NCBI GenBank assembly: GCA_001643675.2
Contig: LSRY02000039.1
Span: 961,344-1,025,343 of the forward strand
Origin: Monocercomonoides exilis PA203
Lineage: Eukaryota; Protista; Preaxostyla
DNA length: 64,000 nucleotides
Reading direction: 5' to 3'
The notes below the pieces were generated by a model. That model ran no database searches, was not told the origin of the DNA, and saw nothing but the letters and a program-made list of their open reading frames with translations. Numbering within the stretch: the first letter of the stretch is position 1; each line of letters begins with the position of its first letter. A program made the position numbers and the translations under genes. Of the stretch, positions 4,550 to 50,495 are shown piece after piece.

Positions 4550-4850
4550 TTGAGAAATTAGTAGCATTTGCTGAGATCATCCTAAACTTTTTGTTCTTTT
4601 CTTTTTATCTATATTCTTCAATAATCACTTTCTTGAATCTTTTGAGAAATTGGAAATAAAAAAGTTCATTTTTTTCAGTGTCATAAATAAATTTCCAATA
4701 ACCGATGAACTTCATCAATAAAACGATATTTTCCATCAATATGTTCATTTCTTCAATCATTTCGTCTATTTTGTTGAGTAATTCTTTTGATAAAATGGAC
4801 TTGAATTCTTCCTAATTCATTTCTTTGACTTGTTCATTCATAACGAGAAT
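4550..4850 (-). pseudogene. Degenerate 5' fragment of the same family
   Basis: Minus-strand translation ...EMN*EEFKSILSKELLNKIDEMIEE...ENIVLLMKFIGYW matches the family N-terminus; in-frame stop. Confidence 0.65.
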
Positions 4851-18638: not shown

Positions 18639-18941
18639 CAAATCAGAAAAGATAAAACTTAAAGCATTTTTAGTTTCATTTATCACTTTCCAAAAAATGC
18701 AAGTGCAAAAAGCTGCAGTGCGAATACACAAATTTCATTGGCCGTTTTGGGTTTTGTTTTTTGTCTTTTCCTTTCTTAACATTTACGAATTCAGTGTGTA
18801 TGATAAAAATTTGTTTATTTTCTGAATGTCGTGTATTTTCGAAAATGCAGGGACTATCTTTCACCGAAAAATTCACTGGTGTGCAATCAATGATGTTTTT
18901 TTCTTGATTGTTTCAATTTTTTCTTCATTATTTTTTAAGAA

Positions 18942-20565: not shown

Positions 20566-21875
20566 TTATAAATAAATAAAAAGCTCTTCAATACTTTTGA
20601 TAGACAAATAACAATAATCCACTCCTTTAAAAACATAATACTGCAGCAAGATGATGCAATCTTCGTATCCTTCTTCCTCTAACTTTTCAAATACTTTTCT
20701 TTTCGTCTCTTTTCTTTTTTCTTTTTCGATTTCACCATTTTTTTCCCCTTTCAATCGCTTTAAAATTGTAATGAAGAATCTCAAGCTTTCAAATATCATT
20801 ACGTCATTCAATGTTGATTGGATAGTTTCCTCCAAAACGAGATCAACTGCTCCTCCTTTCAGAAACACTTCAATTTCCGAGGCTCTTTTTCCAATTACTG
20901 CTTCAAATATATAAACGCACCAATAGCTAATTTCTTTGTGATGATCTTTTGCTGCTCGAAATATCTGAATTATGCTACGAAAAAGTCCAGAAAGTTCTTC
21001 GTTCCACAACTCACCAGATTCAAAGAAAAATGCTAATGCTAAGAACCATCTCATCAAAGTTAGTTCTTCTTTCTTTTCTTTCACTCCTTTTTCTTCTTTT
21101 TCTCTCTTCCAATCCACACTATTTGTCAGCTCTTCCAATTCCTTTATTGCCTCTCTCACGAAATGAAGTTCATTCACAATAATTTCTTCTAAGCTTCTAT
21201 CAAATAAAATTCTTCTAATCAAAAACTGCCAAGCAGACTGATAGGCAAGTCGTGTCAGATTCTGATATTCCTGATGATATTGGATAATCTCTTTGATCTC
21301 ATTATAATACAGTTCTTTTGGAACTTTCTAATATAAATCGAAAAAAATCAATAGCGTTAAAAATGAAAAACAAGTGCTCAAACATCATATACTGGAATTT
21401 TGTTCAAAGCCAGCAATGCCACTTCCACTTCTTTTTGAACTTCCTCACTTTTCTCTTTCTTCGATGCAGCTTTCAATAGACATGGTACACAAATAGAAAG
21501 CATTTCCGAATCGAACTGGTTACTAAGCAAAAGATAGCATTCGCAGAGATCAGTCAGAAGCTTTACGTTCTTTTCTTTTTTCTTTTCTTCTTCATCAATA
21601 ATCATCTTTTCAAATCTTCTGCTCAGCAAAGATTTTTTAAAGAATAGGTTCCATACATTTTTCAGCGCATCGCAATATCCTACATGTTTCAGCAGCAAAA
21701 TTGTATTTTCCATTGACATTTTCTTTTCTTCAATCATTTGGTGTATTTTATTGAACAGTTCTTCTGTGAAAATGGATTCAATTTCTTCTTCGTTCATTCC
21801 ATCAACTACTTCATTCATTTCAAGGATTTTCTTTCTCTGTTCATCTTCATTGCAATGCTCAAGTTCACAAAACAA
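20566..21875 (-). CDS. Expanded host family protein, convergent with the previous gene
   Basis: ORFs 21378-21875 and 20566-21222, same motifs, intron ~21329-21383. Confidence 0.8.
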
Positions 21876-27749: not shown

Positions 27750-29084
27750 GAAACTTTCACAGCTGGAACAATTCACCGAAGCAGAACAGAAACGAGCAGT
27801 CGTCGAAATGAATGAAATAATGGAAGAGATGCGTAGAGAAGATATTGAATCCGTTTTCACGAAAGAACTGTTTGACAAAATCGATGAAATGATCGAAGAG
27901 GAGAAACTTTCAATGGGAAATTCATTGTTGTTGCTGAAGCATGTTGGATATAGCAAAGTACTGAAAAATATATGTGATCGATGCTTTGAACATTCAACAT
28001 TGAGCAAAAGATTGGAAAAAATAATTAAAGATGAAAATGAGAAAAAAGATGAAAAGAATGAAAGGCTTTTGACTGATCTCTGTGAGTGTTACCTTTTGTT
28101 ACATAACGAATTTGAGTTCCCTCCAAAAACCACAACAAAATTTTGTGTTCCCTACCTTTTGAAAGTGGCATCAAACAAGGATGAAAGCGAAAAAAAACAA
28201 AAAGAAGTGGAAATGTCTTTATTTGCATTAAGTTGCATCGAAGGATATTGTGTTTGAGGATTTCAATTTTCTTTTGACATTTTTCAGTTTTTTTCTGATT
28301 TTTTGCATAGGAAGTGCCAAAAGAATTGTATCAAAATGTAATCAGTGAGATTTTTCAATATCATCAAGAGCATCATAATTTGACACGAGTTGCCTATCAA
28401 TCAGCATGGGAGTTTTTGGTATGCAGATTACTCAACGGTGAACTCATCAAAGGAGTTATTGTGAATGAGCTACATTTTGGAAGAGAGGCAACAAGAGAAT
28501 TGGAAGAACTATCAAAATTTGTGGATTGGAAGATGAAAGAAGAAGAAAATGAAAAGAGAAGAAAAAAGACAAAAGAAGAGCTTGATTTGATGAGATGGCT
28601 TGAAGCATTGAAGCAATATTTATTCAAATGCAAATTGTGGAATGAAGAATTTATTGGGCTTTTAAGCAACATTGTTCAGGTATATCGAACAGCGGATGAT
28701 AAATTCAGAGAAATTTGCTGTTGGTGCATATTTCCCTTGAGAGAAGCAGCAGGAAATAGAGTTGTTAAAGTTGAAGACTTGCTGAATGGCGGCGCTATTG
28801 ATGCTGTTTTGGAGGAGATCCGTCGACAAACATTGAATAAAAACATTGAATATTTTTGCTTGAACTTCTTTTTGAGTGTTTCGGTGAGATTAAATAAAAA
28901 GGTGGATAGTGAAGCAGACAAACCAGAAAGAATAATTACAAAAAGGAAGGTCCTTGAAAAGCTGGAAGAAGAAGGATTCGAAGATACCTTCACAAGTTTT
29001 CATGCAATTATTGATTTTCTCAACGAAAAATATTATTTTGATAAATTATCGTTGAACTTTTCGGATTATTCCGTAAATGTTTGA
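27750..29084 (+). CDS. Expanded host family protein (intron 28252-28310)
   Basis: ORFs 27709-28257 and 28314-29084 join in phase 0. 5' end uncertain. Confidence 0.8.
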
Positions 29085-31441: not shown

Positions 31442-32786
31442 TTGATGCTCGGGGAAGAATTGCTTGATCAGTTGGAGCATTGCAATGAAGAAGAGCAGAA
31501 ACAGAAAATTGAAGAATTAAATGGAATTATTGATGAGATGAATAAAGAAGAATTTGAATCTATTTTAAAAACAGAGCTGTTCAACAAAATGGACAAAATG
31601 ATTGAAGAAAAGAAACTTTCGATGGAAAATGCATGCTTATTGCTGAAGCATATTGGATATTGGAAAACTATGAAAAACGTGAATGCTGATGGCTTTAATC
31701 GTTCATTGCTTTACGAAAGATTTGAGGAGATGATCATTAAAGAAGAAGAGAAAAAAGAAGAAAAGAATGAAAAGCTTTTGATCGATCTCTGCGAATGCTA
31801 CGCTTTGCTTTTCGAAGGATTTTTTTCAAACTTGTTTCAAATTTGCGTGCCTTTTCTTCTTAAAGTTGCATTGAAGAAAGAGGAAAACGAGGAGACTCAA
31901 AAAGAAGTGGAAATTGCTTTGTTTGCAATAAGTTGCATCAGCCAATATATTGCATGAGCATTTCCATTTCCATTTTGATGTTATTGATTTTTCTTCATTT
32001 ATTGGCAAACAGGAAATCAAAAAAGATTTGTTTTTGAATGATGCGAAAGAAATAATTCAATATCATCAAGAGCATAATAATTTGACACGAGTTGCCTATC
32101 ATTCTGCTTGGCAATTTTTTATTTACCATTTTTGGTATGGCAAAAGCTTGGAGGGAGAAATTGTGAATAGTCAGCGTTTTATAAGAGAAGCAGCAAAAGA
32201 AATGAAAGAGCTGACAAGAAATGTGAATTGGAAGAAGAAAGAAGAGGAAATGAGCAAAGATGAAGCGAATGAAGTGCTGGTAATTAGGAGATGGATCAAA
32301 ACACTTGAGAATTATTTTCTCTATTATCAATTTCCGAATGAAAAATGTGTTGGCCTTTTCAGCAGAATTGTTCAGATATATGGAGCAGCGAAGGATAATT
32401 ACAGAGAAATAAGAAGAGAATACATTTATGTATTTGAAGAAGCATCAGGAAACAGGACTATGAAAATTGATGACTTGTTGAAAGGAGGAGCAGTTGATGC
32501 TGTTTTGGAGGAGATTCAACAATCAACGTTGAATAAAGAGAAATTATATGATTGCTTGGACTTCTTTTCGAATGTTTCATATCGATTGAAAGAAAAGAAA
32601 GGAGAGGAGGATGATGAATTTGAAGACGCTAAAAGAAAGATAACGAAAATGGAGATATATGAAAAATTGGAAGAAGAAGGATACGAAGATTACATAAAAT
32701 GCTTTTTTGAATCTTTAAAACATTTTCAACGTTATTATTATTGTAATTTATCGTTGAATGCTTGTGATTATTTTGTATTCGTTTAA
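31442..32786 (+). CDS. Expanded host family protein (GC-AG intron 31952-32012)
   Basis: ORFs 31442-31957 and 31950-32786 join in phase 0 at the conserved intron position. Confidence 0.8.
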
Positions 32787-33075: not shown

Positions 33076-35823
33076 TTTGATGACAATCCGAAAAGAGTCT
33101 TTTTCATCGGTACGGGCAATGCCAATTCATTCTTCATCTATCTCCTTCAACAACTTCTTCAACAACAACAACAACAATTACACCTTCTCTTTCACCTTCT
33201 TCATCCTCCTCCTCTCCATAAAATTGTCAATTTATTTCTTCTTCTCCTTCTCCTTCTCCTACTCCTACTCCTTCTTCTTCTTCTTCTCTTTCATCATCAT
33301 CATCATCTTCATCTTCATCCTCATCCTCATCATCATCATCATCATCTTCTTCTTCTTCTTCTTCTTGCTCTTTCAAAGCACTTTTCCTTCTTCTTCTTCT
33401 TCGGCAACTTTTTTGACTGCCTTATATATAGCCATCGCAAAGTACAAATGAAGAAGATGCTGATACAGAACAAAAATGAACATTTTGAGAAGATTTTAAA
33501 GAGGACAAATGCATAATCACTCCAGAATAGAGAAGCTGGAAAAGGAAAATATGGCTTCACTTCGTTTCAGATGGAAAGCGACAAAGAAGGCGATTCATTG
33601 AATGGAATGCGTTGAACCTTTTTCTTCTCGTTGACAAACTTCCTCTTCATGTTCTTCACTCAAACTTCTCCTCAATTTCTCCTTTTGATTCAAAGTCTTT
33701 CATGATTTATCCTTCTCTGCATTCGCCTGTTCTTGTTTGAATTTGCTTGGTGCGTCATTTGATAGCTATGGATGAGAAAAGAAAGCTATTAGCTCTAAAG
33801 TGGTTGCAATAACTTTGAAATTGGTGGAATAGAATCTTAATATACAGCCGAGCAAGAGGAAGATGAGGAAGAGGAAAAAATAAGAGGAAAAAAAAGAAGA
33901 ATAGGAAAATAGAGAATTCTGTAAAGATAAGAGGACAAAGAATAAGTTGAATGCATGTTTGCAGATTGAAGCTGCTGAATTTGATAAGCGTTGCAATTTG
34001 AATCCGTTTTATGCAAATCAGTGATAATTATGACGGCACAAGGCGAAAGGGTTGGAGATGATCAGCTATGAATATTCAGAGCTTAAAGAGAAAGAATTAA
34101 AGAATGAAGCATCAGCGTCAAATACAGTCACAGCGATAAACTTATAATTCTCAGTTTATGAAGCGCTACTATTCTGTTGAAGCTCAAATGAGTTTAGAGA
34201 TTCATTTCTTCTTCTTCTTTTTTTTTTTTTTTGAGTTCATTGAATCATCGCCTTCTTCTTCAATAAGCTCATAAAAGATTTATTTAGAGTTTGATTCCTT
34301 CTTTCTTATCAGTTTTTTATTACAGTGAAAATTCCGCAACTCAGTTGATTACAGACGCATCAAGTGGAAGTGATATGATCCATACAAAATTGTTGGAAGA
34401 AGCACATGCAAATGCACTAAATGTGAAGAAGAAGGGGAATGAAGGAGAAGATAAAGAGAAAAGAAAGGCAAAAAAGTGGAAGAAGAAGTTTTCATTTGAA
34501 AATTGAATCAAAGTTGGCAGTTCAATGAGAATTTAACAACCACTTTTCAATTGGGCTGCTTTGTGATTCAAAGAAAATCAAATTATTAAAGGAAGAAATA
34601 TTGGGAAACCTCATTTTCATATTTTCAAACTTCTACGAGCCTATCCTTCATGAAATTTTGCTTTGAAGAACAATTAACGAAATATTTTAAAAATTCTGTT
34701 TCAATTTAAAGAAAATGTGATGAAAAAATTTGAAAAGAAATTCTATTTTGAAAACAACCTTTTAGAAACGCAAAACGAAGTTTAATTTCTTGTTTGAACA
34801 ATAATTTGTTGATTTGCTATTCTATTTATTTATGGTTTTTTGATCTGAATTCAAATTTGATGTGAAGGGGTTATGGGGCATAATATTTTTGTTATTTTTA
34901 ATGTTAATGTTTTTTATACACCAAAATGAATGGAATTAATAAATATGCATTTTAAAAATTATTCATTTACTCGTCATGCGAAAGATAAAGATATTCTTTA
35001 AAATCAATTTGAGTGTTTCTTTTAAATGGATTAAAAATTTTGATATTGTTTTTTTTCCTCAATCAATTTTTCAAAACTAATCTAGCTTAAAGAAAACGTT
35101 GACAAATTGCAAATTAATGATTTTTTGTTGTTCAATTAAATATTATTGGGAAATTTCACATTTTCAAGTTTAAAACAGTTTTATTCATTTATTAATCAAG
35201 TTCATCAGAAAATTTTTGAAATAATTGTTTGTATTTTTGTTCGTCATTCTGTGCATGGAATTGTTTTATCAAAAAAATCTGACTTTTTGATATTAAAGAA
35301 TATAAGATAATATGCTTATTGAATATCTATTTAACATTCAACACAGATCTATCGAATTCTATTTGATGTGTTTTCTTCTTGTATCTATCTGAAAAACAAT
35401 TTTCTTATATCTTTTCGAAAAACTTTCTCCAATACTCTCTCTTCTTTTTTCTTTATTTCTTTTCTGGAACAGGAATTTTCAAATATCTTTCGAGTTAATA
35501 ATACAAAGTGTTCTTTTTCAATTTTCATCTCTTTAACTTGCTTAACATAAAAGCACTTTCCAACAGCTCTGATGTGAAAAGATCTTTTTGTTTCATTAAA
35601 CTTTCACAAATTTCCATTTCTTAATTAGTATCAAGGATTTTTTTCACTTGAAAATATTTATCATATTTATTCTTTCTCTTTCAAACGTTTCTTTTATCGA
35701 TTTTCACTGACAATCGGAAAATTTCTTTTTTCCCCCTCTGTCTGTGCTAATTCTGTGGAAAAGTTTATTGTTTATTCAATTTATTAAATATTTCCTTTAT
35801 TAATTTTTTGAATAAAAGGAATA

Positions 35824-36670
35824 CACCAAAAATTATTCAAGATCGAAAAACTTTAATTCAACATCGAAAATTATTATTCAAAATCGAAAAAGTTTAATTC
35901 AAGATCGAAATTAATTATTCGAAATCGGAAAACTTTAATTCGAAATCGAAAAAGTTTAATTCGAAATCGAAAATATTTAATTCAACATCGGAAAAGTTTA
36001 ATTCAAAATCGAAAAAGAAGTTAATTAGTTCAGAATTTCTATTAAAGTCAAAACCATGAAAGTTTTATAGAAACAAATGTTAATAGAAGCAAATGTTTAA
36101 TTATTGGAAATGTTTTTCTTTCGTTTTTAACAACTGTTTTCTATGATATAGACTGATATCAATCGATTCTTTTCTCATTTTGAATATTGAAAATGTTTTA
36201 TTCTATCAGTTTCCAATGCAATAAATGAAATTCAAAACATTTCGTATTCAATGAATGAGATGAATTTCTGTCTTTTTGTGCACAAAACAAGATCATGAAC
36301 CATTCTATCACTTTTATTTTTTGCAAAAATTGCTTATTATATTCTGAGCACATGTGAAGAGTTAAGAAATAGTAAATTTTTTCTTATTCACTCTATTGAA
36401 CACAATCAAACACCACAAAAAATATAAAAAATATTTTTCTAATTGAAATTGACAAATTTCTCAGATCAATTACTGAAAGAAAAGAAACTGACATGAGAAT
36501 GAATTTTGAAAATTATTAAAAATTTTTTTTATAATAAAGAATTTTCGATGTTGAATTAAATATTTCCGATTTCGAATAATTAATTTCGATCTTGAATTAA
36601 ACTTTTTCGATTTTGAATAATAATTTTCGATCTTGAATTAAACTTTTTCGATGTTGAATAATTTTTGGTG
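35824..36670. mobile_element. Foldback/MITE of the same family, copy B
   Basis: CACCAAAAATTATTCAA...TTGAATAATTTTTGGTG, with inverted ~21-bp repeat arrays at 35824-36015 and 36541-36670. Confidence 0.85.
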
Positions 36671-36858
36671 TGAAAAATGAAAAAATAATAAAAACTGTTG
36701 TTTAAAAATAATAATTAACAAAAAACAAAATTTTCAACTCTTTTGCAATAATTAAAATCATGTATCATAAGAACTCATTTCACAAATTTTGATTCAAAAC
36801 TTTATTCTTTATATGTCAAAACTTTATATCATAATTTTGTGACAGAGGTCAAGTGAAC

Positions 36859-37122
36859 ATGTCTGAAATTAACTTATCTTGGACTGAGAATGAATATTTA
36901 AAGGCATCTAACACCCTAAGATTTGTAACCTTGCAGATACAGAGACTAACTGACATCATAAACAGCAGCAAAGAAATAGACGCCGTGCCGGATGCAGCCT
37001 GGGAAGAATTGGATAACCTAACAATAAGAAGAAATGCCTTATTAGTCTATATTAACAAACTTTTGAACGACCGTTTTGAATTTTTAACATGTCACGAACA
37101 AGAAATAAAACAAGAATCCTAA
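36859..37122 (+). CDS. Solo copy of viral ORF3 outside the array
   Basis: 36835-37146 matches the viral sequence base for base (compare lines 36841-37140 with 45721-46020). Confidence 0.8.
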   Translation: MSEINLSWTENEYLKASNTLRFVTLQIQRLTDIINSSKEIDAVPDAAWEELDNLTIRRNALLVYINKLLNDRFEFLTCHEQEIKQES

Positions 37123-37281
37123 TTTGACATTATTTATTTATTTTTTTATAAAATATTGAAATGATGAAAAATATGCATAATCGAGGTTAAGAACAGGGAG
37201 AGCATCTCTGCCCATCCAGGTTTCCATTCCAATTCTTCCACTCACCCACATTAGAACTGAAATGAATTGAGCGGGTCAATT

Positions 37282-38400: not shown

Positions 38401-38459
38401 ATAAAAAAATTAAAAATATATCCATTTTTTTTTGAAAGGTTCCTTCAGTTTTATTTTCG

Positions 38460-38619
38460 AATAAAACAAAATTTTCATATTTCAATCAATTTTCTATTCC
38501 CACTCACGAAACTTTTTTTGAATAAAAATAATAACATTGTTCAGATTTTATTATCATGACAGCGAAATTTGGTGAGTGGGAATAGAAAATTGATTGAAAT
38601 ATGAAATTTTTGTTTTATT
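38460..38619. repeat. ~50-bp inverted repeat (foldback/MITE-like)
   Basis: ATAAAACAAAATTTTCATATTTCAATCAATTTTCTATTCCCACTCAC at 38461-38507 and its reverse complement at ~38572-38618. Confidence 0.85.
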
Positions 38620-39740
38620 TGTAAATTAAACAAAGGGAACTTTTCAAAAAAATTTAGACATCTCTCGTTTGTTATTATTCTGGCTTCTATATTTCTTACG
38701 TGACTCGCATATAGTTCTTCCAAAAACGATGAATTTGCTTCATCATCATTCTTTTTGAGTGGATTTTGTGGTTTAAGAAAATTGGTGAAGCAGCATGCAA
38801 CTTAAAAATAGTCTGCAACCATCACTGCATCAAATAACCAAGGTTTTCTGAAGGTGGTGAAGAGTGTTTTGATTCTTCCGAAAAATCTTTCCACGATAAC
38901 GCGATGTGTGGCCATTTCTGGGGTTTCCATGGGCTTTGTGATGATGGCTTCCAGCTCTGGTTCTGCTCCAATGAAAGCAATATCAGCTAAAATCTTAGCT
39001 CCTCCAAGCTTTTGAACAAATGTGGGGTAATGTTCTTTGAAAATAGTAAAATCGTGAGTTGACCCAGAGTAGATAGAACTGATTGTACTTGCTGTCCCCA
39101 CCTTGGGGTTCACTCCTACCTCCGCCTTGACACAATAGATGTGACGCTTTCCTGAATAAAACTTTTTTCCATTATCCAGCTTTCCTCCCGGTCTGTTTGT
39201 TGGAATGACTGTACAATCAACAACAATTCCCACCTCCTTCATTCCTTCAAGACGATCAGGACGAAAAGATAGAAAAAGTTCTGTCAGTTGATGTTTGATA
39301 GATGTTGCTTCTGAGTGCAACAAACGAACAACCGCACTTTGTGTTTCATATTTGGATTTCACAAACAACAATGTCAACCTGAGTGAGCCATAATGAAGAA
39401 AATTTTTTAGCAAGAAAAGTTGCTACCACAAAGTATCAATTGCTTTGACCTTTCCAAAATGAGGGAAAGCATTATCAGAAAGAAGCCGGGAAAGAAGATC
39501 AAATTCTGAACGACTAAATCCAATCAATCTGAAAAACCCAGTTGACTTATCCAAAGATTTCGAACATGTTATTTCGATAATTGTTGTGATTTTTTCTTCT
39601 TTTGTTGCATGAATATGTGTCGGAATGACATTCCTTTTTTCCACACATTTCAGAACATCCATAAAAGTGTTTTGAGACATCAATTCACTCTTTTCAAAAC
39701 TTCTTAAACAATGCAACCCTTCATTTATATTTATCAAATG
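38620..39740 (-). pseudogene. PIF/Harbinger-ISL2EU-like (DDE_Tnp_4 type) transposase with two in-frame stops
   Basis: Motifs VDCTVIPTNRP, FYSGKRH, GSTHD, ILADIAF, HRVIVERFFGRIK and VACCFTNF. ORFs 39423-39761, 38802-39413 and 38541-38723 share one frame and are separated only by TAG (39423-25) and TAA (38802-04). Confidence 0.85.
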
Positions 39741-39995
39741 GGTGATTATTTTTGAAATCAAACTTTTTTTCTGTGTAGTTAATATTTTGAAAATTTATTA
39801 TCATTTGCTGAATAATTGTCATTTGAACATAAAATGTTTATCATTCGTTTCAGAAGCCAAAGTTTGACTTGAAAATTTTTGAAGCTGCATCATTAAAAAA
39901 ATCTATCACTTTTCAGGGTACATTTATGAATATCTTTTCAAATTTTCAAACTGAAATTTTTGACAAAAATAATATGATTTTGAAAATAATCACCC
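39740..39995. mobile_element. 256-bp MITE (GGGTGATTATTT TIR, AAAT TSD)
   Basis: GGGTGATTATTTTTGAAATCA / TGATTTTGAAAATAATCACCC, with AAAT on both sides. Confidence 0.7.
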
Positions 39996-40142
39996 AAATG
40001 ATCAAAAATGCACCCATGATTTGATATAAAAGTTTTGACTTTGTAAAAACCGTTTTTTATTTATTATATTTGTTTTATGTTCGTTTAAATGGTATTGAAT
40101 TTATCTAACACTTAATGACCAAATAAAATAGTTTTTGTTCTA

Positions 40143-40397
40143 TTAATCACTCTTTTTCTCAAGCAAATCATGTAAATCAGAAGATGAATCAATAGAATAC
40201 ATTGCTGCTCAAGGATTATTTACCATAGGATTCAATGCATTACCAGAGAAAAAGAAATTTTCTTTACCATTTTGATTACCAAGAACCACACCATTCGCAC
40301 ACTTCCAATAATTTACCATTCCATATTAATAATTAACTATACAATAATTACTTGCATAAGCTCGACAATAATAAACATCTGAAAATTTATTTTGCAT
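40143..40397 (-). pseudogene. Older, diverged endogenous CRESS capsid 3' end with two in-frame stops
   Basis: Manual translation MQNKFSDVYYCRAYASNYCIVNY*YGMVNYWKCANGVVLGNQNGKENFFFSGNALNPMVNNP*AAM... aligns without gaps to the intact cap VQDKFNNTYGTVDENLATCKINMVCHTTNYWKYVAGMRLPSADDQETYKPCGNTVNPFSPAPRSM; 18 identities in 62 positions. Confidence 0.85.
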
Positions 40398-41277
40398 ACC
40401 AGTACCTGCAAGAATAACAGCATCATAATACCATCTAGCACGATCCCCAAATCCATCATAACGAGTATGTTTTTTAGGGTATATTTTACATTCATATTCT
40501 GTGACATAATTAGTATCACCTGTAACCCTAAGCAACTTATCAATATACAACTGAACACCATACTGCTTACACCAAATACGCCTAAAATTTTTAACATAAC
40601 CACTAGTAATTAACTCCGGATACTTAAACATAGTATATATTATATTCTTTAAATCATTATTTTCATTAGGTCTATAACCCCATTTACGGAACACAAGGAC
40701 CCTAACATAAGGAACTTGCCAATATCTCTGAGCATCACCAGGATTTACAGGTCCAACATTAAATGTAAATTTATACCTAGACATATAATTTATATAATCC
40801 GACCTTTGTATATCATCACCAGCAGGAGTAGTAGACTCCATCTGAATAATTTGATTTTGAGGAATCTGAACTAAATCAATAGGATTAAGAGTAGTATAAG
40901 ACAATGCATAATTATAAGCTGTAAAAGTCTCAACAGTATGATCAACTGAATAATATATATCCGGTCTATTTTTATATAACCATGTAACATACTTAGATCT
41001 CGCCTTTTTAAAAATCTTTTCTCTTCTTTATCTTATATCTTATCTTAGCCTTTCTACCACGACGCCTCTTTTTAAGAAGACCCATACCTGTTTGCTTAGT
41101 CTGCTTCCAGTTCTCTACTCTCCCCTGACCATAACGACGAACAGCTTGAAGAGTTTTACGACGTGACTCCTCACCTTTTCGTAGATAGTACAACAACGCC
41201 TTATTGATACCGGGGTACCTATAGTATTTACGCTTTGCAAATCTATGGAATGACTTATATCTTCTTCGGCCATCCAT
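40326..41277 (-). pseudogene. cap: Chimeric capsid: current-virus cap (to ...ILAGTG, 40398) fused to a diverged C-terminus; T-run frameshift at ~41008
   Basis: ORFs 41008-41277 and 40326-40904; identity to the intact cap stops at 40398. Confidence 0.88.
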
Positions 41278-41352
41278 TTTTAATAATGATATTCCCTTTT
41301 TGGTCAGGTCAATTTTACCATAATTTTTTCAGCCGTGACAGAGGTTGTGACA

Positions 41353-41384
41353 GGGGTTGCCTGGTAATACTAGCAGGCAACCCC
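41353..41384 (-). promoter_or_regulatory. Rolling-circle origin stem-loop 1 (nonamer TAGTATTAC on the minus, cap-sense strand)
   Basis: 11-bp perfect stem GGGGTTGCCTG/CAGGCAACCCC; loop GTAATACTAG is the reverse complement of CTAGTATTAC; adjacent iteron-like repeats GTGACAGAGG/GTGACAGGGG. Confidence 0.95.
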
Positions 41385-41516
41385 CTACACAAAAAATAAA
41401 ATAGTGGGTATGATCAAAAATTTAATTTCTCCGTTTCTCCGAAATAAATAAAATAGTGGGTAAGTTGACTATTTAGGAAGTTATTAAAACATAAAACTGA
41501 CATTTTTGTGACACAT

Positions 41517-42494
41517 ATGCAAAGACAACAACATAGAGCTTACTGTTTCACTTTAAATAATTACACAGAAGAAGAAGAATTTCATATAATACAATTAAAT
41601 TATAATTACCTAGTATTCGGTTACGAAGAAGGTGAAGAAGAACATACACCTCATTTACAAGGATATATACAATTTAAAAGACAAAAAGACTGGCACAAAG
41701 TGAAGGATATGTTCCCAATAAGAACTCATTTAGAGCCTGCACACGGATCACCACAACAAAACATAGACTACTGCACAAAGCAAGGTAACTGGAAGGAATT
41801 TGGTGAAAGACCTCAACCCGGAAAAAGAACTGACCTAGCAAGAGTAGCTCAGAAAGTAGTAGAAGGCACAAAGGTTTCTGACTTAGCAAAAGAAGAACCA
41901 GAGATAACAACTAAATACTATAAAGGCCTAACTTTCCTACAAGCACAAGTAAACTGGGACAAGAGAGGTCAAAGAGAAAAAAGAAGACATACTTACTGGA
42001 TATGGGGTGCAAGCGGAACAGGAAAAACATACTTCAGTTGCGAGCAATTAAAGAAGATGCCTGGATATAGAAAAAGCGAATTCTACATGTGGCCAAAGAG
42101 CAAAGACTTCATAGACGCTTACCAAGGAGAGAAATATGCACTATTCGATGACTTTAGAGCTGAAGGAAGTATGGACTTCGACACTTGGCTAAGACTTTGC
42201 GACCCTTGGATGAACCCTACAATATCTATAAAAGGTGCAAGCGCCACTTGGAGCCCTGATGTAATATTCTTTACAAGCATAATGCCACCTGAAACATGCT
42301 GGCTGTCACAGAAAAAACTAAGCGCTGAAGATACCAACCAAATAAGAAGAAGGGTACATGTCATAGATATTGCTGACTGTGACGTCCACATACCAGAAGT
42401 ACCAGATGATGAGCCTGAATTAGTACAACATGCCTTAATGATGTTAGTAACTAACATGTCTATTAACACAGACTTAGATTTATCACATCAATAG
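41517..42494 (+). CDS. rep: CRESS virus replication-associated protein (HUH endonuclease + SF3 helicase), copy 1, intact
   Basis: RCR motif I CFTLNN, II PHLQG, III YCTK; Walker A GASGTGKT; Walker B LFDDF; motif C-like FFTSI; Arg finger QIRRR. ATG at 41517 (ORF track starts at GTG 41508). Confidence 0.97.
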   Translation: MQRQQHRAYCFTLNNYTEEEEFHIIQLNYNYLVFGYEEGEEEHTPHLQGYIQFKRQKDWHKVKDMFPIRTHLEPAHGSPQQNIDYCTKQGNWKEFGERPQPGKRTDLARVAQKVVEGTKVSDLAKEEPEITTKYYKGLTFLQAQVNWDKRGQREKRRHTYWIWGASGTGKTYFSCEQLKKMPGYRKSEFYMWPKSKDFIDAYQGEKYALFDDFRAEGSMDFDTWLRLCDPWMNPTISIKGASATWSPDVIFFTSIMPPETCWLSQKKLSAEDTNQIRRRVHVIDIADCDVHIPEVPDDEPELVQHALMMLVTNMSINTDLDLSHQ

Positions 42495-42744
42495 GAGGGC
42501 TTCGCACGGATGACTCGTCGCTACGCGCGCTCCCGTCGCGCTAGCTCCTCAAACACCAAGACGCCAATTTAAGATGCAGTTATAGTTAAAAAGAGTAATA
42601 TACTTATAATATTTTTTATATATTTTTCCGAATTTAATTTTTCCGAATTTTAAGGGACACCCACAACATATTTTTTATATACTTAAATAAGTAGTCATTA
42701 AAACATACAAATGGCATTTTTTTTGTGACAGAGGTCAAGTGAAC

Positions 42745-43008
42745 ATGTCTGAAATTAACTTATCTTGGACTGAGAATGAATATTTAAAGGCATCTAACAC
42801 CCTAAGATTTGTAACCTTGCAGATACAGAGACTAACTGACATCATAAACAGCAGCAAAGAAATAGACGCCGTGCCGGATGCAGCCTGGGAAGAATTGGAT
42901 AACCTAACAATAAGAAGAAATGCCTTATTAGTCTATATTAACAAACTTTTGAACGACCGTTTTGAATTTTTAACATGTCACGAACAAGAAATAAAACAAG
43001 AATCCTAA
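42745..43008 (+). CDS. Viral ORF3, unknown function (87 aa, predicted helical), copy 1
   Basis: Unchanged in all six units and in the solo copy; preceded by TTTTGTGACAGAGG and followed by a T-rich tract. Confidence 0.7.
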   Translation: MSEINLSWTENEYLKASNTLRFVTLQIQRLTDIINSSKEIDAVPDAAWEELDNLTIRRNALLVYINKLLNDRFEFLTCHEQEIKQES

Positions 43009-43129
43009 TTTGACATTATTTATTTATTTTTTAGAAATGAAAAAAATAAAAAATAAAATTTTAAAAACTAAAATATAATAATATATAAAAAAAATTGGTA
43101 GGAATGGTATCCGAACCGGGAGCGCTTCT

Positions 43130-44272
43130 TTACTTGGCCAAGTCTTCATTCCGATCAGCTACCATCCCCAATTCTTCATGATCATCTTTAATAATTTTCA
43201 TAGAACGAGGAGCAGGCGAAAATGGATTAACTGTATTACCACATGGTTTATAAGTCTCTTGATCATCAGCAGAAGGTAATCTCATACCAGCAACATATTT
43301 CCAATAATTAGTAGTATGACAGACCATATTAATTTTGCAAGTAGCCAAATTTTCATCAACGGTACCATAAGTATTATTAAACTTATCTTGAACACCAGTA
43401 CCTGCAAGAATAACAGCATCATAATACCATCTAGCACGATCCCCAAATCCATCATAACGAGTATGTTTTTTAGGGTATATTTTACATTCATATTCTGTGA
43501 CATAATTAGTATCACCTGTAACCCTAAGCAACTTATCAATATACAACTGAACACCATACTGCTTACACCAAATACGCCTAAAATTTTTAACATAACCACT
43601 AGTAATTAACTCCGGATACTTAAACATAGTATATATTATATTCTTTAAATCATTATTTTCATTAGGTCTATAACCCCATTTACGGAACACAAGGACCCTA
43701 ACATAAGGAACTTGCCAATATCTCTGAGCATCACCAGGATTTACAGGTCCAACATTAAATGTAAATTTATACCTAGACATATAATTTATATAATCCGACC
43801 TTTGTATATCATCACCAGCAGGAGTAGTAGACTCCATCTGAATAATTTGATTTTGAGGAATCTGAACTAAATCAATAGGATTAAGAGTAGTATAAGACAA
43901 TGCATAATTATAAGCTGTAAAAGTCTCAACAGTATGATCAACTGAATAATATATATCCGGTCTATTTTTATATAACCATGTAACATACTTAGATCTCGCC
44001 TTTTTAAAAATCTTTCTCTTCTTTATCTTATATCTTATCTTAGCCTTTCTACCACGACGCCTCTTTTTAAGAAGACCCATACCTGTTTGCTTAGTCTGCT
44101 TCCAGTTCTCTACTCTCCCCTGACCATAACGACGAACAGCTTGAAGAGTTTTACGACGTGACTCCTCACCTTTTCGTAGATAGTACAACAACGCCTTATT
44201 GATACCGGGGTACCTATAGTATTTACGCTTTGCAAATCTATGGAATGACTTATATCTTCTTCGGCCATCCAT
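43130..44272 (-). CDS. cap: CRESS capsid protein, intact (380 aa)
   Basis: Long Arg/Lys-rich N-terminal arm followed by a Tyr/Val-rich beta-type core (YVRVLVFRK); ambisense to rep and diverging from the origin. Confidence 0.88.
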   Translation of the reverse strand: MDGRRRYKSFHRFAKRKYYRYPGINKALLYYLRKGEESRRKTLQAVRRYGQGRVENWKQTKQTGMGLLKKRRRGRKAKIRYKIKKRKIFKKARSKYVTWLYKNRPDIYYSVDHTVETFTAYNYALSYTTLNPIDLVQIPQNQIIQMESTTPAGDDIQRSDYINYMSRYKFTFNVGPVNPGDAQRYWQVPYVRVLVFRKWGYRPNENNDLKNIIYTMFKYPELITSGYVKNFRRIWCKQYGVQLYIDKLLRVTGDTNYVTEYECKIYPKKHTRYDGFGDRARWYYDAVILAGTGVQDKFNNTYGTVDENLATCKINMVCHTTNYWKYVAGMRLPSADDQETYKPCGNTVNPFSPAPRSMKIIKDDHEELGMVADRNEDLAK

Positions 44273-44347
44273 TTTTAATAATGATATTCCCTTTTTGGTC
44301 AGGTCAATTTTACCATAATTTTTTCAGCCGTGACAGAGGTTGTGACA

Positions 44348-44379
44348 GGGGTTGCCTGGTAATACTAGCAGGCAACCCC
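44348..44379 (-). promoter_or_regulatory. Origin stem-loop 2
   Basis: Same sequence as origin 1. Confidence 0.95.
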
Positions 44380-44511
44380 CTACACAAAAAATAAAATAGT
44401 GGGTATGATCAAAAATTTAATTTCTCCGTTTCTCCGAAATAAATAAAATAGTGGGTAAGTTGACTATTTAGGAAGTTATTAAAACATAAAACTGACATTT
44501 TTGTGACACAT

Positions 44512-45489
44512 ATGCAAAGACAACAACATAGAGCTTACTGTTTCACTTTAAATAATTACACAGAAGAAGAAGAATTTCATATAATACAATTAAATTATAA
44601 TTACCTAGTATTCGGTTACGAAGAAGGTGAAGAAGAACATACACCTCATTTACAAGGATATATACAATTTAAAAGACAAAAAGACTGGCACAAAGTGAAG
44701 GATATGTTCCCAATAAGAACTCATTTAGAGCCTGCACACGGATCACCACAACAAAACATAGACTACTGCACAAAGCAAGGTAACTGGAAGGAATTTGGTG
44801 AAAGACCTCAACCCGGAAAAAGAACTGACCTAGCAAGAGTAGCTCAGAAAGTAGTAGAAGGCACAAAGGTTTCTGACTTAGCAAAAGAAGAACCAGAGAT
44901 AACAACTAAATACTATAAAGGCCTAACTTTCCTACAAGCACAAGTAAACTGGGACAAGAGAGGTCAAAGAGAAAAAAGAAGACATACTTACTGGATATGG
45001 GGTGCAAGCGGAACAGGAAAAACATACTTCAGTTGCGAGCAATTAAAGAAGATGCCTGGATATAGAAAAAGCGAATTCTACATGTGGCCAAAGAGCAAAG
45101 ACTTCATAGACGCTTACCAAGGAGTGAAATATGCACTATTCGATGACTTTAGAGCTGAAGGAAGTATGGACTTCGACACTTGGCTAAGACTTTGCGACCC
45201 TTGGATGAACCCTACAATATCTATAAAAGGTGCAAGCGCCACTTGGAGCCCTGATGTAATATTCTTTACAAGCATAATGCCACCTGAAACATGCTGGCTG
45301 TCACAGAAAAAACTAAGCGCTGAAGATACCAACCAAATAAGAAGAAGGGTACATGTCATAGATATTGCTGACTGTGACGTCCACATACCAGAAGTACCAG
45401 ATGATGAGCCTGAATTAGTACAACATGCCTTAATGATGTTAGTAACTAACATGTCTATTAACACAGACTTAGATTTATCACATCAATAG
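44512..45489 (+). CDS. rep: CRESS Rep copy 2, intact (E>V variant, YQGVKY)
   Basis: Identical to copy 1 except A>T at 45125. Confidence 0.96.
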   Translation: MQRQQHRAYCFTLNNYTEEEEFHIIQLNYNYLVFGYEEGEEEHTPHLQGYIQFKRQKDWHKVKDMFPIRTHLEPAHGSPQQNIDYCTKQGNWKEFGERPQPGKRTDLARVAQKVVEGTKVSDLAKEEPEITTKYYKGLTFLQAQVNWDKRGQREKRRHTYWIWGASGTGKTYFSCEQLKKMPGYRKSEFYMWPKSKDFIDAYQGVKYALFDDFRAEGSMDFDTWLRLCDPWMNPTISIKGASATWSPDVIFFTSIMPPETCWLSQKKLSAEDTNQIRRRVHVIDIADCDVHIPEVPDDEPELVQHALMMLVTNMSINTDLDLSHQ

Positions 45490-45705
45490 GAGGGCTTCGC
45501 ACGGATGACTCGTCGCTACGCGCGCTCCCGTCGCGCTAGCTCCTCAAACACCAAGACGCCAATTTAAGATGCAGTTATAGTTAAAAAGAGTAATATACTT
45601 ATAATATTTTTTATATATTTTTCCGAATTTAATTTTTCCGAATTTTAAGGGACACCCACAACATATTTTTTATATACTTAAATAAGTAGTCATTAAAACA
45701 TACAA

Positions 45706-46002
45706 ATGGCATTTTTTTGTGACAGAGGTCAAGTGAACATGTCTGAAATTAACTTATCTTGGACTGAGAATGAATATTTAAAGGCATCTAACACCCTAAG
45801 ATTTGTAACCTTGCAGATACAGAGACTAACTGACATCATAAACAGCAGCAAAGAAATAGACGCCGTGCCGGATGCAGCCTGGGAAGAATTGGATAACCTA
45901 ACAATAAGAAGAAATGCCTTATTAGTCTATATTAACAAACTTTTGAACGACCGTTTTGAATTTTTAACATGTCACGAACAAGAAATAAAACAAGAATCCT
46001 AA
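45706..46002 (+). CDS. Viral ORF3 copy 2 (98 aa if the upstream ATG is used)
   Basis: T7 tract puts the upstream ATG in frame (MAFFCDRGQVN extension). Confidence 0.7.
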   Translation: MAFFCDRGQVNMSEINLSWTENEYLKASNTLRFVTLQIQRLTDIINSSKEIDAVPDAAWEELDNLTIRRNALLVYINKLLNDRFEFLTCHEQEIKQES

Positions 46003-46123
46003 TTTGACATTATTTATTTATTTTTTAGAAATGAAAAAAATAAAAAATAAAATTTTAAAAACTAAAATATAATAATATATAAAAAAAATTGGTAGGAATG
46101 GTATCCGAACCGGGAGCGCTTCT

Positions 46124-47267
46124 TTACTTGGCCAAGTCTTCATTCCGATCAGCTACCATCCCCAATTCTTCATGATCATCTTTAATAATTTTCATAGAAC
46201 GAGGAGCAGGCGAAAATGGATTAACTGTATTACCACATGGTTTATAAGTCTCTTGATCATCAGCAGAAGGTAATCTCATACCAGCAACATATTTCCAATA
46301 ATTAGTAGTATGACAGACCATATTAATTTTGCAAGTAGCCAAATTTTCATCAACGGTACCATAAGTATTATTAAACTTATCTTGAACACCAGTACCTGCA
46401 AGAATAACAGCATCATAATACCATCTAGCACGATCCCCAAATCCATCATAACGAGTATGTTTTTTAGGGTATATTTTACATTCATATTCTGTGACATAAT
46501 TAGTATCACCTGTAACCCTAAGCAACTTATCAATATACAACTGAACACCATACTGCTTACACCAAATACGCCTAAAATTTTTAACATAACCACTAGTAAT
46601 TAACTCCGGATACTTAAACATAGTATATATTATATTCTTTAAATCATTATTTTCATTAGGTCTATAACCCCATTTACGGAACACAAGGACCCTAACATAA
46701 GGAACTTGCCAATATCTCTGAGCATCACCAGGATTTACAGGTCCAACATTAAATGTAAATTTATACCTAGACATATAATTTATATAATCCGACCTTTGTA
46801 TATCATCACCAGCAGGAGTAGTAGACTCCATCTGAATAATTTGATTTTGAGGAATCTGAACTAAATCAATAGGATTAAGAGTAGTATAAGACAATGCATA
46901 ATTATAAGCTGTAAAAGTCTCAACAGTATGATCAACTGAATAATATATATCCGGTCTATTTTTATATAACCATGTAACATACTTAGATCTCGCCTTTTTA
47001 AAAATCTTTCTCTTCTTTATCTTATATCTTATCTTAGCCTTTCTACCACGACGCCTCTTTTTAAGAAGACCCATACCTGTTTGCTTAGTCTGCTTCCAGT
47101 TCTCTACTCTCCCCCTGACCATAACGACGAACAGCTTGAAGAGTTTTACGACGTGACTCCTCACCTTTTCGTAGATAGTACAACAACGCCTTATTGATAC
47201 CGGGGTACCTATAGTATTTACGCTTTGCAAATCTATGGAATGACTTATATCTTCTTCGGCCATCCAT
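46124..47267 (-). CDS. cap: CRESS capsid copy with homopolymer frameshift (~47111)
   Basis: ORFs 47085-47267 and 46124-47263; extra C in a C-run. Confidence 0.85.
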
Positions 47268-47341
47268 TTTTAATAATGATATTCCCTTTTGGTCAGGTCA
47301 ATTTTACCATAATTTTTTCAGCCGTGACAGAGGTTGTGACA

Positions 47342-47373
47342 GGGGTTGCCTGGTAATACTAGCAGGCAACCCC
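47342..47373 (-). promoter_or_regulatory. Origin stem-loop 3
   Basis: Same sequence as origin 1. Confidence 0.95.
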
Positions 47374-47505
47374 CTACACAAAAAATAAAATAGTGGGTAT
47401 GATCAAAAATTTAATTTCTCCGTTTCTCCGAAATAAATAAAATAGTGGGTAAGTTGACTATTTAGGAAGTTATTAAAACATAAAACTGACATTTTTGTGA
47501 CACAT

Positions 47506-48482
47506 ATGCAAAGACAACAACATAGAGCTTACTGTTTCACTTTAAATAATTACACAGAAGAAGAAGAATTTCATATAATACAATTAAATTATAATTACCT
47601 AGTATTCGGTTACGAAGAAGGTGAAGAAGAACATACACCTCATTTACAAGGATATATACAATTTAAAAGACAAAAAGACTGGCACAAAGTGAAGGATATG
47701 TTCCCAATAAGAACTCATTTAGAGCCTGCACACGGATCACCACAACAAAACATAGACTACTGCACAAAGCAAGGTAACTGGAAGGAATTTGGTGAAAGAC
47801 CTCAACCCGGAAAAAGAACTGACCTAGCAAGAGTAGCTCAGAAAGTAGTAGAAGGCACAAAGGTTTCTGACTTAGCAAAAGAAGAACCAGAGATAACAAC
47901 TAAATACTATAAAGGCCTAACTTTCCTACAAGCACAAGTAAACTGGGACAAGAGAGGTCAAAGAGAAAAAAGAAGACATACTTACTGGATATGGGGTGCA
48001 AGCGGAACAGGAAAAACATACTTCAGTTGCGAGCAATTAAAGAAGATGCCTGGATATAGAAAAAGCGAATTCTACATGTGGCCAAAGAGCAAAGACTTCA
48101 TAGACGCTTACCAAGGAGAGAAATATGCACTATTCGATGACTTTAGAGCTGAAGGAAGTATGGACTTCGACACTTGGCTAAGACTTTGCGACCCTTGGAT
48201 GAACCCTACAATATCTATAAAAGGTGCAAGCGCCACTTGGAGCCCTGATGTAATATTCTTTACAAGCATAATGCCACCTGAAACATGCTGGCTGTCACAG
48301 AAAAACTAAGCGCTGAAGATACCAACCAAATAAGAAGAAGGGTACATGTCATAGATATTGCTGACTGTGACGTCCACATACCAGAAGTACCAGATGATGA
48401 GCCTGAATTAGTACAACATGCCTTAATGATGTTAGTAACTAACATGTCTATTAACACAGACTTAGATTTATCACATCAATAG
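47506..48482 (+). CDS. rep: CRESS Rep copy 3, 1-bp homopolymer frameshift (~48301)
   Basis: Split ORFs 47497-48309 and 48285-48482; A-run is one base short. Confidence 0.9.
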
Positions 48483-48730
48483 GAGGGCTTCGCACGGATG
48501 ACTCGTCGCTACGCGCGCTCCCGTCGCGCTAGCTCCTCAAACACCAAGACGCCAATTTAAGATGCAGTTATAGTTAAAAAGAGTAATATACTTATAATAT
48601 TTTTTATATATTTTTCCGAATTTAATTTTTCCGAATTTTAAGGGACACCCACAACATATTTTTTATATACTTAAATAAGTAGTCATTAAAACATACAAAT
48701 GGCATTTTTTGTGACAGAGGTCAAGTGAAC

Positions 48731-48994
48731 ATGTCTGAAATTAACTTATCTTGGACTGAGAATGAATATTTAAAGGCATCTAACACCCTAAGATTTGTAA
48801 CCTTGCAGATACAGAGACTAACTGACATCATAAACAGCAGCAAAGAAATAGACGCCGTGCCGGATGCAGCCTGGGAAGAATTGGATAACCTAACAATAAG
48901 AAGAAATGCCTTATTAGTCTATATTAACAAACTTTTGAACGACCGTTTTGAATTTTTAACATGTCACGAACAAGAAATAAAACAAGAATCCTAA
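48731..48994 (+). CDS. Viral ORF3 copy 3
   Basis: Identical protein. Confidence 0.7.
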   Translation: MSEINLSWTENEYLKASNTLRFVTLQIQRLTDIINSSKEIDAVPDAAWEELDNLTIRRNALLVYINKLLNDRFEFLTCHEQEIKQES

Positions 48995-49113
48995 TTTGAC
49001 ATTATTTATTTATTTTTTAGAAATGAAAAAATAAAAAATAAAATTTTAAAAACTAAAATATAATAATATATAAAAAAATTGGTAGGAATGGTATCCGAAC
49101 CGGGAGCGCTTCT

Positions 49114-50256
49114 TTACTTGGCCAAGTCTTCATTCCGATCAGCTACCATCCCCAATTCTTCATGATCATCTTTAATAATTTTCATAGAACGAGGAGCAGG
49201 CGAAAATGGATTAACTGTATTACCACATGGTTTATAAGTCTCTTGATCATCAGCAGAAGGTAATCTCATACCAGCAACATATTTCCAATAATTAGTAGTA
49301 TGACAGACCATATTAATTTTGCAAGTAGCCAAATTTTCATCAACGGTACCATAAGTATTATTAAACTTATCTTGAACACCAGTACCTGCAAGAATAACAG
49401 CATCATAATACCATCTAGCACGATCCCCAAATCCATCATAACGAGTATGTTTTTTAGGGTATATTTTACATTCATATTCTGTGACATAATTAGTATCACC
49501 TGTAACCCTAAGCAACTTATCAATATACAACTGAACACCATACTGCTTACACCAAATACGCCTAAAATTTTTAACATAACCACTAGTAATTAACTCCGGA
49601 TACTTAAACATAGTATATATTATATTCTTTAAATCATTATTTTCATTAGGTCTATAACCCCATTTACGGAACACAAGGACCCTAACATAAGGAACTTGCC
49701 AATATCTCTGAGCATCACCAGGATTTACAGGTCCAACATTAAATGTAAATTTATACCTAGACATATAATTTATATAATCCGACCTTTGTATATCATCACC
49801 AGCAGGAGTAGTAGACTCCATCTGAATAATTTGATTTTGAGGAATCTGAACTAAATCAATAGGATTAAGAGTAGTATAAGACAATGCATAATTATAAGCT
49901 GTAAAAGTCTCAACAGTATGATCAACTGAATAATATATATCCGGTCTATTTTTATATAACCATGTAACATACTTAGATCTCGCCTTTTTAAAAATCTTTC
50001 TCTTCTTTATCTTATATCTTATCTTAGCCTTTCTACCACGACGCCTCTTTTTAAGAAGACCCATACCTGTTTGCTTAGTCTGCTTCCAGTTCTCTACTCT
50101 CCCCTGACCATAACGACGAACAGCTTGAAGAGTTTTACGACGTGACTCCTCACCTTTTCGTAGATAGTACAACAACGCCTTATTGATACCGGGGTACCTA
50201 TAGTATTTACGCTTTGCAAATCTATGGAATGACTTATATCTTCTTCGGCCATCCAT
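49114..50256 (-). CDS. cap: CRESS capsid protein, intact (380 aa)
   Basis: Identical protein to 43130-44272. Confidence 0.88.
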   Translation of the reverse strand: MDGRRRYKSFHRFAKRKYYRYPGINKALLYYLRKGEESRRKTLQAVRRYGQGRVENWKQTKQTGMGLLKKRRRGRKAKIRYKIKKRKIFKKARSKYVTWLYKNRPDIYYSVDHTVETFTAYNYALSYTTLNPIDLVQIPQNQIIQMESTTPAGDDIQRSDYINYMSRYKFTFNVGPVNPGDAQRYWQVPYVRVLVFRKWGYRPNENNDLKNIIYTMFKYPELITSGYVKNFRRIWCKQYGVQLYIDKLLRVTGDTNYVTEYECKIYPKKHTRYDGFGDRARWYYDAVILAGTGVQDKFNNTYGTVDENLATCKINMVCHTTNYWKYVAGMRLPSADDQETYKPCGNTVNPFSPAPRSMKIIKDDHEELGMVADRNEDLAK

Positions 50257-50331
50257 TTTTAATAATGATATTCCCTTTTTGGTCAGGTCAATTTTACCAT
50301 AATTTTTTCAGCCGTGACAGAGGTTGTGACA

Positions 50332-50363
50332 GGGGTTGCCTGGTAATACTAGCAGGCAACCCC
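50332..50363 (-). promoter_or_regulatory. Origin stem-loop 4
   Basis: Same sequence as origin 1. Confidence 0.95.
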
Positions 50364-50495
50364 CTACACAAAAAATAAAATAGTGGGTATGATCAAAAAT
50401 TTAATTTCTCCGTTTCTCCGAAATAAATAAAATAGTGGGTAAGTTGACTATTTAGGAAGTTATTAAAACATAAAACTGACATTTTTGTGACACAT

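Follow-up and report, generated by a model that had tools for sequence, protein, structure and literature searches.

A tandem CRESS DNA virus array at a Monocercomonoides exilis chromosome end appears to be joined in register to an older, diverged endogenous capsid gene

The main texts of two previous studies describe endogenous circular Rep-encoding single-stranded (CRESS) DNA viruses in gut protists, with Naryaviridae and Nenyaviridae in Entamoeba and Vilyaviridae in Giardia (PMC7493932), and Kirkoviridae in parabasalids (PMC9615429). Here we describe an array of a new CRESS virus at the end of a chromosome of Monocercomonoides exilis PA203 (GCA_001643675.2, contig LSRY02000039.1), located in a stretch of 64,000 nucleotides (positions 961,344 to 1,025,343, hereafter the window), together with the remnant of what appears to be an older viral capsid gene, to which the first copy of the array is joined in frame. 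As in the described cases, whole genomes with Rep and Cap are integrated in an anaerobic gut protist and point to the host, and the capsid module seems to have recombined within a host cluster. This likeness to Naryaviridae, Vilyaviridae and Kirkoviridae is drawn from genome and host type. M. exilis is an oxymonad and is named in neither of the two main texts. Integration was considered likely to be Rep-mediated in PMC7493932, whereas both junctions of the M. exilis array lie away from the origin, and the main text of that study contains no telomere term, whereas the M. exilis array is capped by a telomere.

Recombination with a resident relative has been considered for other elements. The passages of PMC10377300 on caulimovirid arrays and hotspots propose that tandem arrays are derived from concatemers, or else that an episomal virus undergoes homologous recombination with a resident element, with Rad52-type annealing suggested, and also describe the retrotransposon Tf1 as inserting into existing copies by Rad52 annealing, independently of its integrase. 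The array in M. exilis is likewise tandem, with a resident element as the proposed recombination partner. However, the caulimovirid case is a proposal that concerns the cognate virus, whereas here the junction is resolved to the base and identity with the partner is as low as ~25% for the protein and 45% for the DNA; in addition, the virus would have a single-stranded DNA genome and the product ends in a new telomere, unlike the caulimovirid arrays. Tf1 and the new virus have in common a resident relative as the target of the incoming element, but Tf1 as described there involves closely related copies, and neither a rolling-circle array nor the loss of a chromosome end.

Human herpesvirus 6 (HHV-6) and Marek's disease virus integrate at telomeres via their own telomeric repeats, with the telomere distal to the virus. 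Both are copied into the chromosome end by homology and leave the telomere distal, as in the present case, but the homology they use is that of telomeric repeats, whereas here the handle would be an older viral gene. No tandem telomeric repeat was found within the viral unit, and HHV-6-type integration, which relies on such repeats inside the viral genome, does not describe this locus. In a literature search that covered few subscription papers, we found no report of CRESS viruses in Monocercomonoides, nor of a CRESS array that is capped by a telomere or continues in register into an older endogenous viral element (EVE). The words 'virus' and 'viral' are absent from the text and four supplements of the M. 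exilis assembly paper, and the accessible part of PMC3198968 holds nothing relevant for comparison. PMC6759080 has a supplementary table with 196 genes that derive from transposons or viruses, in which some of the genes considered here may be flagged already. In outline the idea is known, but the base-resolved case with so diverged a partner, the telomere cap and the oxymonad host appear to be new.

The array takes up the right third of the window and comprises 19,122 bp of head-to-tail viral DNA, or 6.39 copies of a unit of 2990-2996 bp (Table 1). The last base specific to the flank is 40397, and identity with the array unit begins at 40398, right after Cap codon 293, at the ILAGTG codons where the initial annotation of this DNA had placed the crossover. 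That annotation had also claimed that the capsid frame continues to the left of this point, and our results confirm it: the minus-strand Cap frame runs on without gaps, with 18 of 62 identical residues as first counted and 21 of 84 up to the end of the remnant. The two stops it had reported are present as well, a TAA at 40326-40328 (codon 24) and a TGA at 40209-40211 (codon 63) that is indeed opposite an Arg, followed by terminal stops at 40143-40145 and 40140-40142. The local BLOSUM62 score of the flank against Cap is 83, and the alignment beat all 10,000 shuffles in the control that had been suggested for it, since this score was reached in none of 5000 dinucleotide shuffles (maximum 52) and in none of 5000 residue shuffles (maximum 58).

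When the flank was slid over the 5,988 placements on the unit (all positions, both strands), the true register scored 83 and the runner-up -13, so that the one placement in 5,988 that stands out puts the junction at homologous positions of donor and target. The cumulative score is 75 at codon 62 and 83 at codon 84; because the signal sits in the first ~62 codons, homology of the last ~20 codons of the flank is not demonstrated. At the nucleotide level, flank and virus are identical at just 113 of 252 positions (45%). The junction falls at the conserved G-x-G-x-x-x-K-[FY] block that closes Cap strand 282-293, where local conservation in the family is 0.44-0.56, against 0.11 just past the block. 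In terms of the predicted structure it would lie at the end of this strand, with the flank supplying the last strand and the tail of the capsid.

Over the flank, Logan contigs of the runs X1, X2 and X3 show 0 differences and have single-copy depth, and they stop at 40427, 30 bases into the array, which is the expected branch point of the assembly graph. They fall one base short of the 31-base bridging rule, and they are the longest contigs from three DNA runs of one sample, which is possibly the source of the assembly. These contigs argue against a mis-join and, since the sample is the same, they do not represent a second strain. Read depth in X1 is 30.8 over the array and 4.57 over the flank, and the resulting ratio of 6.7 agrees with 6.4 copies. 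Virus cover is lacking in X2 and in part of X1, and no weight was given to this gap.

The flank belongs to the same capsid family as the array, yet not to the same virus. A profile that combines the C-termini of five other capsids of the family, with the new virus left out, detects it in a six-frame search of the window (E 9.5e-6), as expected of a family member, and with a ten-capsid profile it is the sole match below E 0.1 in 1-40397. Over the same interval a Rep profile of 119 sequences gave nothing significant (best E 0.055), and no old Rep was therefore detected left of the junction. Compared with 13 C-termini of the family, the flank scores 83 with the new virus, 76-78 with two host EVEs and 77 with Sigmofec virus UA08Rod_11492, with the remaining scores reaching down to 32, and it has residues in common with other lineages but not with the new virus. 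Being about equally far from the new virus and from the other lineages, the flank is therefore attributed to a different virus, and on these comparisons it is a putative further lineage of the capsid family that is close to no member.

At the column of the TGA, relatives keep Arg, Lys or Asn after a conserved Pro, and all of them read on. It had been pointed out that free virus variants with the C-terminus of the flank would indicate a junction made between viruses before integration. None turned up among the free or endogenous family members retrieved by two protein searches (11 and 13 proteins, overlapping, from a thinly sampled family), and this C-terminus was likewise missing from 28 candidates among longer proteins, which is a weak test, and from 35 pattern hits in viral contigs. 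Within this thin sampling, the claim of an endogenous partner stands.

The comparison of flank and array also bears on the order of events. The seven aligned array copies differ in 15 indel and two substitution columns, nearly all in homopolymers or short runs, and copies so nearly identical mean that the array is very young, or has been homogenised. In simulations, two stops arose within 84 codons in 3% of runs at 2% divergence, in 13% at 5% and in 35% at 10%. Since the flank carries two stops, against two substitution columns in an array of ~19 kb, it was most likely dead before the join, and the remnant was probably already broken when the array arrived. With a flank that was dead at that time, the register would not be due to selection for a functional chimera, which leaves homology. 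When neutral decay of the C-terminus of the new virus to 113/252 was simulated, 3 of 2000 runs kept at least 21 identical residues, and the mean number of stops over the runs was 5.3. Host repeats and a decayed transposase to the left of the flank fit a resident element, and among viral genes neither a Rep nor a third open reading frame (ORF) of a second virus was found there.

The initial annotation had proposed that a related virus was endogenised earlier and then recombined with the incoming one. This is supported by the unique register, the separate lineage of the flank, the stops that most likely predate the array, a host that lacks non-homologous end joining (NHEJ) and another host contig on which a different virus of the family adjoins an array. 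The old element would formerly have continued past 40398, and the exchange would have occurred on the chromosome and not between viral molecules.

At the other end of the array, ~170 bp past the viral origin, a viral TTA leads directly into GGTTAGGG, that is, into in-phase repeats with no subtelomeric DNA between, as expected of telomere healing; 610 TTAGGG and 100 TTAGG units were counted to the right of the array. The left junction being at Cap codon 293, neither junction coincides with the nicking site or origin, and therefore integration directed by Rep is not indicated.

Sections of PMC6759080 describe M. exilis as monoploid and without NHEJ, while encoding homologous recombination and mismatch repair, and PMC8767320, in the part considered here, reports 40-50 chromosomes, implying 80-100 ends. 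For this host we consider it probable that the locus arose by homology-primed copying of a viral circle from a broken old EVE, followed by telomere healing. A resident EVE, already dead, would have broken within the chromosome, and the broken end would have paired with an incoming viral circle at the conserved capsid motif, through homology that lay mostly in the part since replaced. Repair, either by single-strand annealing or by break-induced replication, would then have proceeded round the viral circle 6.4 times; all distal sequence would have been lost, and telomerase likely healed the end by adding TTAGGG at the viral TTA. The chromosome strand whose 5' to 3' direction leads to the telomere is the complement of the one with TAGTATTAC, and in CRESS viruses the strand that bears the nonanucleotide is the virion strand. 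With this polarity the broken 3' end could anneal to a single-stranded circle and be extended, and it may have primed directly on the virion-sense circle.

Several observations weigh against this reconstruction. The match visible at the junction (Table 1) is not unique, and because 14 sites in the unit reach at least 11/16, the decisive homology must lie in the replaced part; the old element right of 40398 is gone, hence the homology actually used cannot be measured. A nucleotide identity of 45% and the mismatch repair of the host should both resist pairing. A fitting strand polarity is expected by chance half the time, and TTA, which occurs 92 times in the unit, is a weak seed for telomere addition. 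Regarding the flank itself, no more than two stops were present in 177 of the 2000 neutral-decay runs, the three codon positions show similar identity (35/38/40 of 84) where purifying selection would give a third-position excess, and in the C-terminus tree, although unresolved, the flank groups weakly with the new virus and has a long branch (68/74). All DNA support comes from one sample. Finally, an identity with Sigmofec virus of 80% in Rep but 40% in Cap suggests that capsids may have been exchanged between free viruses of this group.

A related possibility is that the junction formed between co-infecting viruses, or between a virus and defective viral DNA, and that the head of the chimeric concatemer integrated in one event. 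Recombination is common among protist CRESS viruses according to the main text of PMC7493932, the Rep/Cap discordance with Sigmofec virus is of the kind that such exchanges produce, and selection acting on free viruses favours in-register crossovers. Nevertheless, we regard this origin as unlikely. Because of the two stops in the flank, selection could not act on the chimera as a capsid, and the array copies are too alike for both nonsense changes to have been acquired later. Moreover, the chimera is confined to the first copy, a second virus is represented to the left of the flank by neither a Rep nor a third ORF, and the C-terminus of the flank is that of no family member found.

The stops would be no sign of age if the flank were undecayed and came from a virus of a host in which TAA encodes Gln, its capsid frame then being closed first by the TGA of codon 63; homology would have guided the join even so. 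TAA and TAG encode Gln in some oxymonads, there is a single TAA before the TGA, and homology fades at about that TGA. However, the TGA column continues in all relatives (Arg, Lys or Asn), one codon cannot establish a code, and Cap, Rep and the third ORF of the new virus, as well as several host ORFs, terminate in TAA or TAG, which leaves this explanation very improbable. A non-standard code of the host itself was likewise set aside.

We see little chance that the new virus formed an old array, the interior of which was homogenised by concerted evolution while the flank, at its edge, diverged. Array edges are known to escape homogenisation, and the flank lines up with the new virus without gaps and is its weakly placed sister in the tree; yet identity steps abruptly from 100% to ~45%, the flank is equidistant from other lineages and has residues in common with them, and neutral decay produced 21/84 in 3/2000 runs, with 5.3 stops on average. 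In addition, the viral ORFs are all intact, and a detached patch of the virus further left is 100% identical. A similarly slim prospect is that two insertions occurred independently at a break-prone end and were joined through microhomology, in which case the register would be coincidental. The capsid family is inserted on at least seven contigs and short matches of at least 11/16 are common in the unit, but the observed register is one of 5,988 placements, or one of 14 sites if those of comparable microhomology are considered. Lastly, that free virus was mis-joined to similar host sequence during assembly is scarcely credible, for although the copies contain homopolymer errors, the DNA runs are possibly from the source sample and their contigs are one base short of the bridging rule, the junction words occur with 0 differences in three separately assembled runs, the X1 depth ratio of 6.7 fits 6.4 copies and sequences that are 45% identical differ too much for an assembler to confuse them.

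Copying from a broken old EVE, our preferred reading of this end, can be set beside other loci of the same host. The capsid family occurs on at least seven host contigs, where it is annotated as uncharacterized host proteins. The other six contigs (789,622; 433,378; 233,226; 98,982; 1,221,067 and 1,346,700 nt) hold at least five further viruses, the capsids of the 433,378- and 233,226-nt contigs being 98% identical, and five of the six carry at least two capsid models, several of them in runs of alternate accessions. In the window, accession order seems to follow copy order, judging by gaps between models against frameshifts. By that order, the 789,622-nt contig is a candidate for a second array that is bordered by a different virus: two accession numbers before its seven-model array comes a capsid, MONOS_16681, that is ~52% identical to the array capsid and has no exact peptide of more than 10 residues in common with it. 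If the 80-100 chromosome ends are preferred sites of insertion, co-location alone is weak evidence. On the 433,378-nt contig, MONOS_18319, the first model of the run, departs from the family sequence ~12 codons before the position of the window junction.

It is possible, and we put it forward tentatively, that viral fossils act as standing landing pads in oxymonads without NHEJ. Broken ends would prime on circles of even distant CRESS viruses at conserved capsid motifs and repeatedly swap an old EVE for a fresh and complete tandem provirus, which would then be re-capped. The arrays would represent successive captures from a circulating, hitherto unassigned family of oxymonad viruses, with in-register junctions and fixed polarity, and landing on old EVEs would be a general rule.

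The unit of the array has two hallmarks of Cressdnaviricota. Its origin is a hairpin with a nonanucleotide of the NANTATTAC type in the loop, here TAGTATTAC, with iteron-like motifs next to it (GTGACAGAGG at 41335 and TGTGACAG at 41346), and its Rep has HUH motifs I-III fused to a superfamily 3 (SF3) helicase (Pfam Viral_Rep, E 3e-18; RNA_helicase, E 7e-10). The strings FTLNN, PHLQG, YCTK, GASGTGKT and ALFDD are present in the Rep sequence, and we take them to be the corresponding motifs. The capsid has no match among Pfam or PDB sequences; in the Atlas, the clusters closest to it consist of cressdnavirus capsids (features 0.94; TM 0.53-0.58), and the predicted model, of modest confidence (pLDDT 59), has strands as expected for a jelly roll. 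The head-to-tail unit and the existence of a free relative of 3,200 nt point to a circular viral genome. All viral ORFs in the array are intact, and the chimeric capsid is found in the first copy only. An extra base near 41017, in the first Cap copy and one of the differences between array copies, is absent from the contigs of X1 and X3 and is an assembly error. In the RNA run X5, three low-depth contigs cover Cap (40383-41015, in the array-internal form) and next to none cover Rep or the flank, which does not establish transcription.

The nearest free relative found is Sigmofec virus, a 3,200-nt record whose Rep is identical to that of the new virus at 264 of 328 positions (80%) and whose Cap is 40% identical. 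Sigmofec virus and Banfec viruses 4 and 5 belong to the same capsid family as the new virus (40-45% capsid identity), but they are free genomes, of faecal origin to judge by their names, whereas the new virus is an endogenous array. A capsid fragment in ENA is 66% identical to the new Cap, with a nearly identical N-terminus. Among the matches listed, 118 other Reps are 30-39% identical and unclassified. Scans for the capsid family were negative in viral contigs (0/193 and 0/14), in metagenome contigs (0/134) and in phage records, and Rep scans returned 78 distant loci, none with the new capsid family, and none of 384 in metagenomes. The arrays suggest that viruses of the Sigmofec/Banfec type have oxymonad hosts.

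To the left of the old capsid remnant, beyond a decayed transposase, a 312-bp patch of the new virus lies 3.3 kb proximal to the array, and the contigs examined do not confirm its junctions. The patch could stem from template switching during the repair that produced the array, from a conversion of its own or from faulty assembly. Its right flank (37147-37255) has a weak resemblance to the viral sequence directly beyond Cap (1/2000 shuffles in one of several comparisons; nhmmer E 0.1), with no match at the protein level and in a region that is multi-copy in the contigs, and its left flank is unlike the virus, its score being reached in 1523/2000 shuffles. These comparisons lend weak support to the idea that the patch may have converted a second old remnant.

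The transposase is adjoined by a 226-bp palindrome (38427-38652), and related inverted repeats are found at 39730-39813 and 39925-40005. The rest of the window contains six dispersed paralogues of an acidic host protein of ~400 aa without Pfam match (1120-2282, 4561-4829, 18937-20228, 20653-21879, 27760-29070 and 31455-32772), a subtelomeric gene family. Inverted pairs of 21/41-bp tandem arrays surround spacers of 500-600 bp (35823-36017 with 36515-36671, and 10722-10785 with 11301-11442), and they look like the ends of a non-autonomous element.

Table 1. Positions in the window of the array, its junctions and the neighbouring features.
Feature	Position	Strand	Basis or remark
312-bp patch, 100% identical to new virus	36835..37146	+	Iteron-like motif, whole third ORF, AT-rich tail
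Decayed PIF/Harbinger-type transposase, DDE_Tnp_4, two stops	38700..39680	-	Multi-copy in host
Putative older CRESS capsid remnant, same family, 84 codons, last jelly-roll strand and tail	40146..40397	-	Alignment, family profile
Chimeric first capsid copy	40326..41277	-	293 new-virus codons and 23 old-element codons, then stop
Left junction	40383..40398	.	12/16 matches to virus in register
Array of new CRESS virus	40398..59519	.	Copy alignment, unit length
Origin hairpin	41353..41384	-	Loop nonanucleotide TAGTATTAC at 41364-41372
Rep, 325 aa, HUH endonuclease and SF3 helicase	41517..42494	+	Pfam, motifs
Third viral ORF, 87 aa, without Pfam match	42745..43008	+	Pfam search
Intact capsid, copy 2, 380 aa	43130..44272	-	Cressdnavirus capsid look-alikes (features, predicted structure)
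Right junction, Rep codon 16	59517..64000	+	Viral TTA runs into TTAGGG/TTAGG repeats

The entry of non-retroviral DNA viruses into eukaryotic genomes is usually credited to Rep activity or to illegitimate end-joining, and it can rarely be read from a junction. The M. exilis junction is readable, and it points to homology with a dead and very diverged viral gene. The locus also indicates oxymonads as the likely host group of an unclassified CRESS lineage, an assignment that we did not find in print, and the host, which is cultured, monoploid and without NHEJ, offers a test system with at least six other loci. If the pattern is general, the positions of EVEs would not be independent events, EVE dating and counts would be biased by overwriting, and homeologous repair at chromosome ends would tolerate more divergence than expected.
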